Assembly (NCBI GenBank): GCA_010015805.1
Contig: ML978129.1
Coordinates: 372,001 to 436,000 of the forward strand
Length of the DNA stretch: 64,000 nucleotides
Origin: Rhizodiscina lignyota
Lineage: Eukaryota
Reading direction: 5' to 3'
Part shown: positions 13,292-17,373 of the stretch, one piece after another
How the letters are laid out: every line of letters begins with the position of its first letter
Position numbering within the stretch: position 1 is the first letter of the stretch
Made by a program: the position numbers and the translations under genes
The notes under the pieces: model-generated
The model's database searches: none
Told to the model about the DNA's origin: nothing
Seen by the model: the letters and a program-made list of their open reading frames with translations, nothing else

Positions 13292-13584
13292 ATGATCAGA
13301 CATGACATAATAGACACGTATTTTGTCATGTCTCAAACGTAGATATCTACACGGTCATGTGTCTGATCCCCGTTTCACGTAGTACCCCTTGAGGATGTTA
13401 CACATTCCTTATAGCCAAGAATCCACATTCCTAAGATCGTCAAGATGTTGTTTCATTGTTCTCGTTTCTACGTCACAGGATTCATTCGTCCCATATGTAA
13501 TGTCGCGTTTCTCGTCGCATGGCTGCTAATGTATTTCGCTAATCGCACCTTCCCCCGAGTACGAACCAGACAACTTCCAACACC

Positions 13585-14352
13585 ATGTTCGCGCCATTAT
13601 CGTTGCTCTTCCTACCACTCCTCCTTACCGTTTCTCTCGCCAGTCCGGAAGCCACGACAACACTGACGGCGTCAGCAGCAGCGGCCACCGCCACTGGGCC
13701 AGCAGCATCTTCCGCAGCAGCCGCTGCTTCATCTGGCCAGCCAAATCCTTTTGTCATCCCTCCTGCCGGCCTTGGATTCAAAGCTGGACAGGCATCTGTA
13801 CTGAACTGGCAGCCTACCACACATGACACTGTGACTCTCGTGCTGCGAAGCGGCAATGGAGCGAACTTGGAGGCTGGCACGGTCATCGCGAAGAACATTC
13901 CCAATACTGGCGCGTTTACTTGGACGCCAGACGCTTCCATCACCAAAGGTTCCGATTATGCTCTTGAGATTATTGACGACGCAAATCCGGACAATACGAA
14001 CTATACGCCCTTATTCAGCATTGATTCGACAAATGTGAAGGCGACAGCGACGCCGAAAGTTACGTATGGATTCGCGAGTACAAAGCTTGCAACGACCGTT
14101 GAAACGACGACGACGACATCGACATCGAAAAGTGTGACCGGCAGCACGAGCAGCAGTGTGAGTGGAAGTGTGAGCGGTAGTGTGAGCAGCAGTGTGAGCA
14201 CAACTGTTAGTGTGTCGACGACGAGTGCGAGCGGGTCATCGGATACAGCGGTGGCGACCGAGACTGGAAGTGCTGGAGTGGCGAGCAGGGAAATATACGG
14301 AGCTGCGGATTTGGTGGCTATTGCTGCGGTCCTGGTGGCTCTGGTTGCTTAG
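13585..14352 (+). CDS. Ser/Thr-rich GPI-anchored cell-surface protein (Kre9/KNH-like N-terminal Ig-like domain)
   Basis: Signal peptide MFAPLSLLFLPLLLTVSLA, the NPF..P..G...W.PT...VTLVL..G...IPNTGAFTWTP...DYALEI...NYT..F domain, an S/T-rich stalk with SVSG repeats, and a hydrophobic C-terminal GPI signal. Confidence 0.88.
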   Translation: MFAPLSLLFLPLLLTVSLASPEATTTLTASAAAATATGPAASSAAAAASSGQPNPFVIPPAGLGFKAGQASVLNWQPTTHDTVTLVLRSGNGANLEAGTVIAKNIPNTGAFTWTPDASITKGSDYALEIIDDANPDNTNYTPLFSIDSTNVKATATPKVTYGFASTKLATTVETTTTTSTSKSVTGSTSSSVSGSVSGSVSSSVSTTVSVSTTSASGSSDTAVATETGSAGVASREIYGAADLVAIAAVLVALVA

Positions 14353-14429: not shown

Positions 14430-15933
14430 TCACTCGTAAAGCGCGTCTATTGGATTCCTCGGTTCGCGCACTGTGCTGCCCTCAAATCTTTGCAGTAGAG
14501 AGACGTTCCAGTCCTGAAAGCGCTGGGCAGAAGATGGTAGCAGATCCGCATTAGACTGCAATGCATCTTCAAGGGATGCATAAGCCGCGGTCGGTAGTTC
14601 GATGTGCTCGAATGAAGTGCTTTGCCTTTCTATGACACGGCTTAAGTCGAGTTGGTGTTGCCAAAAAACTTTCATTGCACGTGTAGGATCGTGCCTCGAT
14701 TCATGATGAACAGAGCTTGAAAAGCAGAGATCGGGGGTGAAGACCCAAAGCTGATTTATCGTCAGTGTTAACGATATGTAGCGCGGTTGGGGATGAAATA
14801 CCATTAACCCTCCAGGGCGTTCTTTGCCAGAACCTTGCTGCTGAATCGCAAACTTACGGACGCCGATATTCTGTATCGCTGCAAGAAGTTGAGCTGATAT
14901 CCACTGCTGGATATCGTTCTGCTCGCTCTCATCTTCATGCGCGACAATGACCGCCCACTTAAAGATGCGATAACCGCCGGCGATATCATCGACCACACCA
15001 ATGGGCATATTACATTGATTGCACAAAACATCAAATGTGGCTGCTGGTTCAGACAAAGTTTTATTCGTCTACGTTTGAAATAGTCAGCTATCTCAGCTAT
15101 CTATATGTATCTTGCACTTATCTCGCCCATCTCTTTTCATTCGAGCAGGGCAATGAAACGGCAAGGAACCTGCAACTTTGAGATGCAGGCTCGTTCAATA
15201 TTGGGCGGTAGTAACGGAGGTCTTGTCACTGAACAGGACAGAGCCTCCTTCTTTTACGCCCGTGCATAGGGTTTGCTAAAGGTTCAAGTGATAAAAGGGA
15301 AACACGACCTACCACAGCGCCAGCGCAATCTTCCGCGGCGAGGAGAAAATACATTGTGTCAACGAAGCCTGTGCCAGAGGAAGCCGTGAGCTTGTTGCCA
15401 GCGGCGTAGCCTTTGCGGGATGGTGCATCATTTGCATCATGGTGACTGTGATCGTGATGTTCGTCAGGCTTATGACAGTGCCAAAAGTCCATCATATCTG
15501 CCCAGTTCTCACTGGGGAGGTCTTTCCACTCGCGCACGGTTCCCTTTGGAATTAACACGTTGTCGCATTTCCCACATTTGATTTCCGTTTCCGTGCTCAG
15601 GGACAGTGCGTCCCATGGCACAGGATTGTCTGAACCGGAGTCTGGGAAATCGCTGTACCTCAGCAAGCCTGGGGCCTTTTCTTCAAGCAGCAGGCGTAAT
15701 GTGAGTTCCTTTGCCGGAGTGGGTGGAAGAGCGAGTGCTGCAGAACCACCACCCGAGATCTTCGTTGGTAATCTGATGCTTGCAGATTCACCTTCATGAG
15801 TTACAGTGATTGACTCGCCGTCTGCAGAGAGCGTGGCTTTGGTCTCATGGTTGTGTTCAGATTTGAGTGTCGCGAAGAAGGTGACAGTGCGTATATTCAA
15901 AAGAAGCTCAGCATACAGCTGAATAGAAGCCAT
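14430..15933 (-). CDS. IPA1: HECT_2 / UBE3D family protein (Ipa1-like)
   Basis: Signature CGKC...WKDLPSENWADMMDFWHCHKP and a second CNQC...G motif. Phase-0 intron 15312-15069 (GTAGGT...CTGAC...TAG) and a short in-frame intron near 14800-14750. Confidence 0.85.
15103..15263 (-). ncRNA. Intronic box H/ACA guide RNA; 5' pocket complementary to U2 snRNA (snR81-like)
   Basis: Read on the minus strand. Hairpin 1: GGGCG/CGCCC lower stem, pocket UAAAAGAA + GUUACUAC, GGAGG/CCUCC upper stem, then H-like AUAUUG 14 nt below the pocket top. Hinge hairpin: GAGCCUGCA/UGCAGGUUC. Hairpin 2: CUUGC/GCAAG, pocket CGUUUCA + GAUAAGU, UUGCCC/GGGCGA, then an ACA box exactly 14 nt below the pocket top, followed by 3 nt. 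Confidence 0.8.
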
Positions 15934-16241: not shown

Positions 16242-17373
16242 ATGCCGCTCACGATCCTACCTCCGGCCCCAGCAGCACCTGTCGCACGACACAATGAACC
16301 TTCTGACGAAGACGAGTTCTGGGACTCCGATGGCGATGTGGAGATGGAAGAAATATCGAGGGCGGGCAAACGCCCACGCCTATCGAGGAAGAACATAGTT
16401 ACTCCAGGAGAGCTTGTCACGGACGATCCACAATGGATGAGGTCCGCGTTTCGTATTCTATCCCCAGTAAAACATGAGGACTAATTAAATATCCAGAGGT
16501 CATGGCACATTTCAGCTACCATCTTCCACGTCTATCCACTCCACTGTGTCCGGGACACTGATAAAGACGAACAAACTCCTCTCCATCCTGCCCCTACGCG
16601 CGCGCTACACTCCCGAGATAGGAGATTTGGTCGTTGGTCGAATATTCGAAGTCCAGCAGCGGCGATGGCGTGTCGATGTTGCAGCATCTCTTCTAGCTGA
16701 TCTGCCTCTGTCCGCTATCAACTTACCGGGAGGCATTCTGCGACGAAGGACGGCGGTCGATGAGTTAAACATCAGGACATTCTTCACGGAAGGCGACCTT
16801 CTAGTGGCAGAAGTACAGAGCATTCGCTCTGATGGGAGCGCTTCCCTGCATACGCGCAGTCTGAAGTACGGCAAATTGAGGAATGGATACTTCATGTCCG
16901 TGTCCGGATCAGGTGGCAGTGGTGGGAGAAGAGGTGGTGTTGCGCGCAGCAGAAGACAGGTCATCACGATACAGACAGCAAGAGGCGGTGGAGAGATTGA
17001 CGTTGTGCTCGGGGTCAACGGCTACATCTGGATCGCGAAGCATGTGGAGCCCGATGAAGCAGGCAAAGACGTGAGCATTACCAGGCTCGAAGAGACCGTC
17101 AGCCAGAGCATATATTCGAGCCAGAACGACGAGATTGGTATTCAAACGCGAAAGGAAATCTCAAGAGTAGCCGGAGTGATCAAAGCATTGGTCGAAGGAG
17201 GTAGAAGAGTGGATGAGGAGCTGATTGTCAAAGGCTACGAGGCAAGCCTGGAAGTGGATGCCGAAATGGATATTCACGGTACCGCTCAAGCAGATGAAGA
17301 AGGTGCAGAATGGCTCGGAGGCGAGAAGGGGAAGAGAGTCGTAGAAATTGCGTTAAGTTCCATGATTGAATGA
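16242..17373 (+). CDS. RRP4: Exosome complex cap subunit Rrp4 (S1 + KH domains)
   Basis: [20 protein letters not shown] across intron 16442-16496; [39 protein letters not shown]. Confidence 0.96.

Follow-up and report, generated by a model that had tools for sequence, protein, structure and literature searches.

Known and probable guide RNAs for the branch-site region of U2

Few modifications of the spliceosome are as conserved as the pseudouridines beside the branch-site-recognition sequence of U2 small nuclear RNA (snRNA), and four kinds of box H/ACA RNA come close to the one reported here. In Saccharomyces cerevisiae, the two-hairpin H/ACA RNA snR81 has a 5′ pocket that flanks U42-G43 of U2 and pairs 7+7 at the site of pseudouridine 42 (Ψ42), and its 3′ pocket guides Ψ1051 of 25S ribosomal RNA (rRNA) with 9+3 pairs (PMC6049503). 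In vertebrates, Ψ41 of U2, which corresponds to yeast Ψ42, is guided by SCARNA4 (ACA26) and, in Xenopus, by SCARNA15 with its 5′ hairpin; both rescue Ψ42 in yeast cells deleted for snr81 (PMC5733568). A further fungal H/ACA guide for the branch-site-recognition region, pugU2-43/44 (SPNCRNA.1709) of S. pombe, was found by a search for pocket arms (PMC5473140), and the 'H/ACA snoRNA intronic' of Gao, Jones and Rivas (2021), an intron-encoded small nucleolar RNA (snoRNA) whose host gene is conserved across Pezizomycotina, was found by covariation (PMC8216456). Here we describe an element on the minus strand of a 64-kb stretch of contig ML978129.1 of Rhizodiscina lignyota (the whole analysed stretch, called the window below), lying in a 244-nucleotide (nt) intron of a gene related to IPA1 and UBE3D. 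Its architecture, its complementarity to U2 and its conservation in orthologous introns make it very probable that this intron gives rise to a box H/ACA RNA which guides pseudouridylation of U2 at the position corresponding to yeast Ψ42.

The window element shares with snR81 its two-hairpin form and a 5′ pocket flanking the equivalent of U42-G43, the pairing being 7+7 in both, with one mismatch in the window. It appears to differ from snR81 in its second pocket, where the conserved arms (..UUUCA and GAU..) point elsewhere and suggest no 9-base-pair (bp) 5′ duplex. snR81 is an independent gene, whereas the window element is intronic. Rfam, whose library presumably contains an snR81 model, returned no match at the gathering score anywhere in the 64-kb window, and neither sequence nor structure model placed the element in the snR81 family; at E ≤ 10 within 14950–15450, snoU61 and Thr_leader matched at a chance level of 13 bits and were rejected. 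A previous sequence-only reading of this stretch had called the element snR81-like. That label stands for the job of the 5′ pocket, as judged by complementarity; for homology we found no support, there being no model match, an apparently different 3′ pocket and a different genomic setting. In their fungal snoRNA survey, Canzler et al. (2018) list snR81 only in Saccharomyces, as genus-specific (PMC5824354).

The other described RNAs differ from the window element in their own ways. No similarity of sequence or model to SCARNA4 or SCARNA15 was detected, and while the vertebrate RNAs are defined by their Cajal-body CAB boxes, the nearest thing to one noticed in the window family is an nnAG conserved in the 3′-hairpin loop. 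The S. pombe guide addresses positions 43/44 of U2 through its 3′ pocket, with arms ACAGAUAC and UGAAAA, and is located downstream of RPC10 rather than in an intron (PMC5473140). The intronic RNA of Gao et al. has another host gene and a small-subunit (SSU) rRNA target, and neither IPA1 nor 'U2 snRNA' occurs in that paper (PMC8216456). As far as the relevant portions of two studies of filamentous fungi go, a Neurospora survey predicted no pseudouridine sites or guides on snRNAs (PMC2780460), and work on Aspergillus fumigatus found no H/ACA RNAs experimentally (PMC2377427). Literature searches joining IPA1, snoRNA and intron, or Pezizomycotina, U2 snRNA and pseudouridine, brought up nothing relevant. 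The element is thus a known kind of RNA for which we found no description in this fungal group: the literature examined, whose supplementary tables may list more, describes no H/ACA guide for U2 Ψ42 in filamentous fungi.

Anatomy of the element and its predicted pairing with U2

The host gene, on the minus strand of the window, is an IPA1/UBE3D-like member of the HECT_2 family. Its first exon matches Pfam PF09814 (E 6e-57, profile positions 1–193), its second exon takes up the same profile at positions 200–369, and exon 1 is 100% identical to P0001, a 402-residue database protein that comes from Rhizodiscina lignyota by its source. Because the sequence of P0001 contains the exon junction ...AGAV/TNKT... 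and so crosses it, the intron is fixed at 15312–15069. The other intron of the gene, further down, has only 51 nt; retention of a guide RNA would explain why the 244-nt intron is several times as long. The parts of the locus are as follows.

15313..15933, minus strand: exon 1 of the IPA1/UBE3D-like host gene (ATG at 15933; Pfam PF09814)
15069..15312, minus strand: host intron, 244 nt (GTAGGT donor at 15312, TAG acceptor at 15069)
15103..15261, minus strand: predicted mature box H/ACA RNA, about 159 nt (ends placed by the lower stem and by ACA plus 3 nt)
15203..15261, minus strand: 5′ hairpin with pseudouridylation pocket (fold and covariation)
15261–15257 with 15207–15203, minus strand: lower stem of the 5′ hairpin, GGGCG/CGCCC (sequence and fold)
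15249..15256, minus strand: 5′ arm of the 5′ pocket, UAAAAGAA (its AAAAGAA portion pairs with yeast U2 U44–U50)
15248–15244 with 15220–15216, minus strand: upper stem of the 5′ hairpin, GGAGG/CCUCC (stem and loop 15216–15248; fold)
15208..15215, minus strand: 3′ arm of the 5′ pocket, GUUACUAC (pairs with yeast U2 G34–C41 except for U-U at U40)
15196..15201, minus strand: H-box-like AUAUUG (ANANNG, then A), 14 nt past the upper stem
15166..15192, minus strand: additional 9-bp hinge hairpin (sequence and fold)
15111..15165, minus strand: 3′ hairpin with second pocket (match to model R2, and covariation)
15165–15161 with 15115–15111, minus strand: lower stem of the 3′ hairpin, CUUGC/GCAAG (sequence and fold)
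15154–15160 and 15116–15122, minus strand: arms of the 3′ pocket, CGUUUCA and GAUAAGU (sequence and fold)
15103..15108, minus strand: ACA box (15106–15108) and 3-nt tail UAU ending at 15103, the box 14 nt past the 3′ upper stem

The minimum free energy (MFE) fold of the element gives the order hairpin, hinge, hairpin and ACA at −62.3 kcal/mol (z = −4.94), a stability reached by none of 200 shuffled sequences; this is the two-hairpin architecture of H/ACA RNAs, and both of its hairpins covary in orthologues. The distance from pocket to box is 14 nt in both hairpins, within the 14–16 nt characteristic of H/ACA RNAs, and in the orthologues the 3′ arm, the lower stem and one further nucleotide likewise come to 14–16 nt.

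The U2 reference for all pairings was the yeast sequence, not that of Rhizodiscina or of the organisms carrying orthologues. Its nucleotides 31–78 are printed in the methods of PMC4712673, and the 17-nt U2 segment of a synthetic intron-U2 mimetic (GUGUAGUAUCUGUUCUU; PMC12342898) equals yeast nucleotides 32–48, which supports the sequence used. The two arms of the 5′ pocket form 7/8 and 7/8 Watson-Crick pairs with it, 14 in all, and leave U42-G43 unpaired. On the 5′ arm, AAAAGAA pairs 7/7 with U2 44–50; the 3′ arm pairs 7/8 with U2 34–41, the one exception being a U-U mismatch opposite U40. For a bipartite pocket around an unpaired U-N, at least 8 guide-substrate pairs are enough for pseudouridylation in yeast (PMC6049503). 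Arms of this length (at most one mismatch to U2 34–41 and 44–50, 25–55 nt apart) occur once in the window, where 0.07 occurrences would be expected from 100 first-order Markov simulations.

Most of this anatomy had been anticipated by the sequence-only reading, whose structural statements were all borne out. Its 244-nt intron in an IPA1 gene agrees with the sequence, with PF09814 and with the junction in P0001; its minus-strand fold of hairpin, hinge, hairpin and ACA, with pockets 14 nt above H-like and ACA boxes and an extra 9-bp hairpin in the hinge, was recovered from the letters and from the MFE structure; and the departure of AUAUUG from ANANNA at the last base is as it said. The U2 sequence that it quoted is correct for yeast by the printed stretch in PMC4712673, and against that sequence the arms do pair 7/7 and 7/8 with one U-U mismatch and with U-G left free.

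By analogy with established intronic H/ACA RNAs, we infer that Cbf5, Nhp2, Nop10 and Gar1 would assemble on the two hairpins while these are still part of the pre-mRNA, and that after splicing and debranching exonucleases would trim the intron to a protected RNA of about 160 nt ending 3 nt past the ACA. The internal loop of the 5′ hairpin would then pair with the stretches of U2 that flank the counterpart of U42-G43, the 3′ arm covering G34–C41, including the branch-site-recognition sequence GUAGUA, and the 5′ arm covering U44–U50. The unpaired U would lie 14 nt above the H box and close by on the 3′ side of GUAGUA, the sequence with which the intron branch site pairs, and Cbf5 would convert this equivalent of U42 to pseudouridine. 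For a functional link with the role of the host gene in mRNA 3′ processing we found no support.

Conservation in orthologous introns

An alignment of 25 host-protein homologues was used to scan metagenome contigs. The scan gave 283 pattern matches, 203 of which encode a relative, and the best 80 of these 203, at 40–62% protein identity, were kept. At 52 of the 80 loci the matches to both flanking exons passed the filter and lay 279–451 nt apart at the homologous intron position; the other 28 are truncated or have overlapping matches. A covariance model of the 5′ hairpin (R1), seeded with the window and 58 distinct loci, matches the window once (15191–15266, 56.7 bits) and 78 of the 80 loci, once each, on the strand of the gene and within the same intron gap, with no further match at E ≤ 1 in the 425,400 bases searched. 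The two loci without a match (L038 and L044) are on contigs that stop 20 and 57 nt past the point in exon 1 where residue 200 aligns. One locus from outside the seed, L018, was matched nonetheless (E 3.6e-10).

The stems of both hairpins covary in these introns. In the alignment of the 5′ hairpin (60 distinct rows), 83.6% of the cells are paired, as against 33–47% when one partner is slid; shuffled alignments average 73.5%, and none of 500 reaches the observed value. Ten of the 12 pairs change on both sides (one of them, for instance, is GC in 30 sequences but AU in another 25), and 97% of the lower-stem cells are paired. For the 3′ hairpin a second covariance model (R2) was built from 29 hand-checked seeds, from which L064 and L068 were excluded because they were exonic, and L049 was omitted as well; it matches the window (15103–15169) and 55 of the 80 loci. 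Here 81.7% of the cells are paired, compared with 27–48% for slid partners, and each of the 11 pairs varies on both sides. The ACA does not vary among the 29 seeds and stands at one aligned position in every one of the 56 rows of the 3′-hairpin alignment (A5). Loss of the pocket arms or the ACA from orthologous introns had been named beforehand as one outcome that would overturn the U2 guide; with the 5′ hairpin at 78 of 80 loci, its arms still complementary to U2, the ACA constant in 56 rows and the covariation of stems that was also to be looked for, the element came through.

The guide arms themselves are conserved (the partners again being those of yeast U2). At least five contiguous pairs run from U44 on the 5′ arm in all 60 distinct sequences (the AAGAA core), at least five run from C41 on the 3′ arm in 57 of the 60 (the GAUAC core), and in 57 of 60 the two runs together reach at least 10 pairs. 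The arms are most frequently of the form cAAAGAA / GAUACAA, with 5–6 + 5 pairs. The longer variants GAUACUAC, GAUAUUG and CUGAAAAGAA all track the U2 sequence: GAUACUAC, the 3′ arm of L030–L033, makes 8 pairs and extends through G34; the 3′ arm GAUAUUGC makes 8, two of them G-U; and the 5′ arm CUGAAAAGAA of the L048 group pairs through G53, giving 10+8 = 18 pairs together with GAUAUUGC. Three sequences are exceptions on the 3′ arm: that of the window, which has the one mismatch, and those of L049/L050 and of L052, which are out of register. Judged by this alignment, the U at position 2 of the window 3′ arm is a lineage-specific change in an otherwise extended arm. The H box is a canonical ANANNA in 44 of the 60 distinct sequences and ANANNx in 16, including the window, mostly as AnAnnGA.

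At L049 (2107–2193), L050 and L052 the 5′ arm CGAAAGAA is kept, the 3′ arm (G)UAUACACGA is out of register with U2, and the H box is AUAUCA. In this lineage the U2 pocket may be decaying, or may use a bulged pairing.

The cores conserved in the arms of the 3′ pocket are ..UUUCA and GAU.., and the 3′ pocket appears to be a second, independent pocket with a target of its own. Among ribosomal DNAs (rDNAs) selected by a primer for internal transcribed spacer 1 (ITS1), a set of contigs that included no complete fungal rDNA, the pattern AUC-U-N(1-2)-UGAAA had a single recurring site, which lies in the small-subunit rRNA some 255 nt before the primer site. It reads GGUAAUC-UU-G-UGAAAC in contigs L101 and L129 and AAUC-UU-UGAAAU in plant-like loci. 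In ranked scans this site ties with several others at 9.5–12, and the stretch is variable among rDNAs, so we offer the SSU site as a lead only for the target of the 3′ pocket. A short motif taken for the 25S Ψ1051 site was absent from the rDNAs scanned, a set that included no fungal 25S with this site.

Many records of prokaryotes, both isolates and metagenome-assembled genomes, contain short eukaryotic rDNA contigs (L083, L092, L101, L129 and others). Their 18S-ITS sequences are fungus-like and plant-like, and records under the names Streptomyces actuosus and Collinsella aerofaciens are examples. These contigs look like assembly contaminants.

Two further features of the orthologues lie in the hinge and in the apical loop of the 3′ hairpin. 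In most orthologues the H box is followed by a long, irregular middle hairpin, beyond which the 3′ hairpin begins (for example L006:3233–3305 and L054:3250–3335). Its apical stem and loop are conserved as UAYCCUCUUCC...GAUGGRUU, and the stem covaries (AUCC/GGAU versus ACCC/GGGU). At the same place the window has only the 9-bp hairpin (15166–15192), and the middle hairpin could be a third domain of the RNA that was lost or shortened in the window lineage. In the apical loop (window 15129–15147; columns 36–46 of A5), most orthologues carry an nnAG at one aligned position, in the forms UCAG, UUAG, CGAG, UGAG, GGAG and others; the motif Y-N-A-G-R is present in this loop in 28 of 45 distinct sequences. 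The window has AGAG near, but off, the aligned position. The nnAG resembles the CAB box (consensus ugAG) of animal small Cajal-body RNAs (scaRNAs).

Alternatives, reach and neighbouring sequences

Several observations weigh against a U2 guide. In the window, the U-U mismatch of the 3′ arm falls at the second position from the target, and the H box, AUAUUG followed by A, fits ANANNA at only five of six positions and is non-canonical. The minimal 10-nt core AAGAA..GWTAC occurs six times in the window where 5.46 would be expected, a chance level. In most orthologues the contiguous pairs number only 5+5 or 5+6; AA is conserved there at positions 6–7 of the 3′ arm, of which position 6 faces A36 unpaired; and two distinct sequences (L049/L050 and L052) have lost the register of that arm. 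The seeds of R1 were picked by an arm-based pattern and the alignments (A3 for the 5′ hairpin, and A5) were fitted to the models, so the pairing counts lean towards the structure; RNAalifold on A3 recovered the lower stem only, and the MFE z-scores of two orthologues, −0.04 and −0.30, are insignificant. Some of these points have an answer in the comparison. The form ANANNG with an A after it is shared by 15 more distinct orthologues, which points to a tolerated variant. The slid controls and the match at the unseeded L018 speak against an artefact of model fitting. Since the core is at chance level, the weight must rest on the full arms, on the fold and above all on conservation.

The most serious alternative, which we nevertheless hold to be unlikely, is that the RNA is a genuine H/ACA guide whose 5′ pocket serves some other RNA, such as a site in rRNA, the fit to U2 being secondary or coincidental. 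The retention of no more than a 5+5/6 core in most orthologues and the two conserved A's outside the U2 duplex would suit another substrate, and the target scans covered neither a complete fungal rRNA nor the U2 of any carrier organism. Yet three separate groups have extended arms (GAUACUAC, GAUAUUGC and CUGAAAAGAA), and these extensions, like ACUAC in the window, track U2. The uridine that would be targeted is, in yeast and vertebrates alike, a known conserved pseudouridine for which H/ACA guides are responsible (PMC6049503; PMC5733568). The rDNA controls, moreover, gave nothing as good as U2, the best site for the 5′ pocket scoring 12.5 against 14 for U2 in the eukaryotic rDNAs available, which were not from the right organisms.

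We think it quite unlikely that the intron holds a conserved structure acting in cis on the host pre-mRNA, for instance to control splicing, and gives rise to no stable trans-acting RNA. The position of the element would be convenient for such a role, as it ends 15 nt upstream of a branch-site-like motif (CTGAC at 15087–15083 on the minus strand) and 19 nt from the branch A, the orthologues have likewise retained a long intron here, and the guide RNA has been read from sequence rather than from expression data. Loop sequences are conserved here while the stems covary, however, and an invariant ACA, an H-type box and a spacing of 14–16 nt in both hairpins are hallmarks of H/ACA RNAs that a splicing switch would not need. 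That a chance fold has met chance complementarity, as the frequency of the short core motif might suggest, is refuted by the comparative data and has a negligible probability, given the fold z-score of −4.94, the 0.07 full-arm pairs expected per window and a covarying element in 78 of 80 orthologous introns.

A guide for the U2 site equivalent to Ψ42 thus remains our preferred explanation, and the carriers give some idea of how far it may extend. For two divergent groups of carriers, the nearest named relatives are only 46–48% identical (Xylona and lichens of the Teloschistales, for L054) and 52% identical (Zasmidium, for L061); with named relatives at such low identity, the element reaches, at the least, across a wide span of ascomycete lineages that are Dothideomycetes-like or otherwise unplaced. 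A guide in one intron that is conserved across many ascomycete lineages would be a concrete and testable answer to how this U2 site is modified there, as well as one more example of a snoRNA that its host intron has kept over a long time, and the two covariance models, R1 and R2, can be used to annotate named genomes. It is conceivable, if rather improbable, that the element is the founding member of a Pezizomycotina-wide, scaRNA-like family that kept its place in the IPA1 intron as the host protein diverged to about 40% identity and that replaces snR81 as the Ψ42 guide outside Saccharomyces. In most lineages such an RNA would have three domains, the middle hairpin (UACCCUCUUCC...GAUGGGUU) and the CAB-like nnAG loop adding a third function or, in fungi, a localisation signal of the Cajal-body type. 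A U2 guide freed only by the splicing of its own host intron could also, on this reading, couple U2 modification to splicing capacity.

Some features of the surrounding sequence may be mentioned. Just past the predicted 3′ end of the RNA, at 15083–15101 (minus strand), nine nucleotides of the intron are duplicated in tandem, GAUAGCUGA GAUAGCUGAC, so that the branch-site-like GCUGA(C) motif is present twice. Divergent from the host gene, at 16489–17373 on the plus strand, lies a gene for an RRP4-like subunit of the exosome (RRP4_S1, E 3.5e-32). The exosome trims the 3′ ends of snoRNAs. The adjacency of the two genes is not conserved, a match in the flanks being found at 0 of the 80 orthologous loci. 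Downstream of the host gene, at 13543–14352 on the plus strand, a Ser/Thr/Ala-rich open reading frame with a Kre9/KNH-like N-terminal domain (E 6.3e-20) probably encodes a cell-wall protein.

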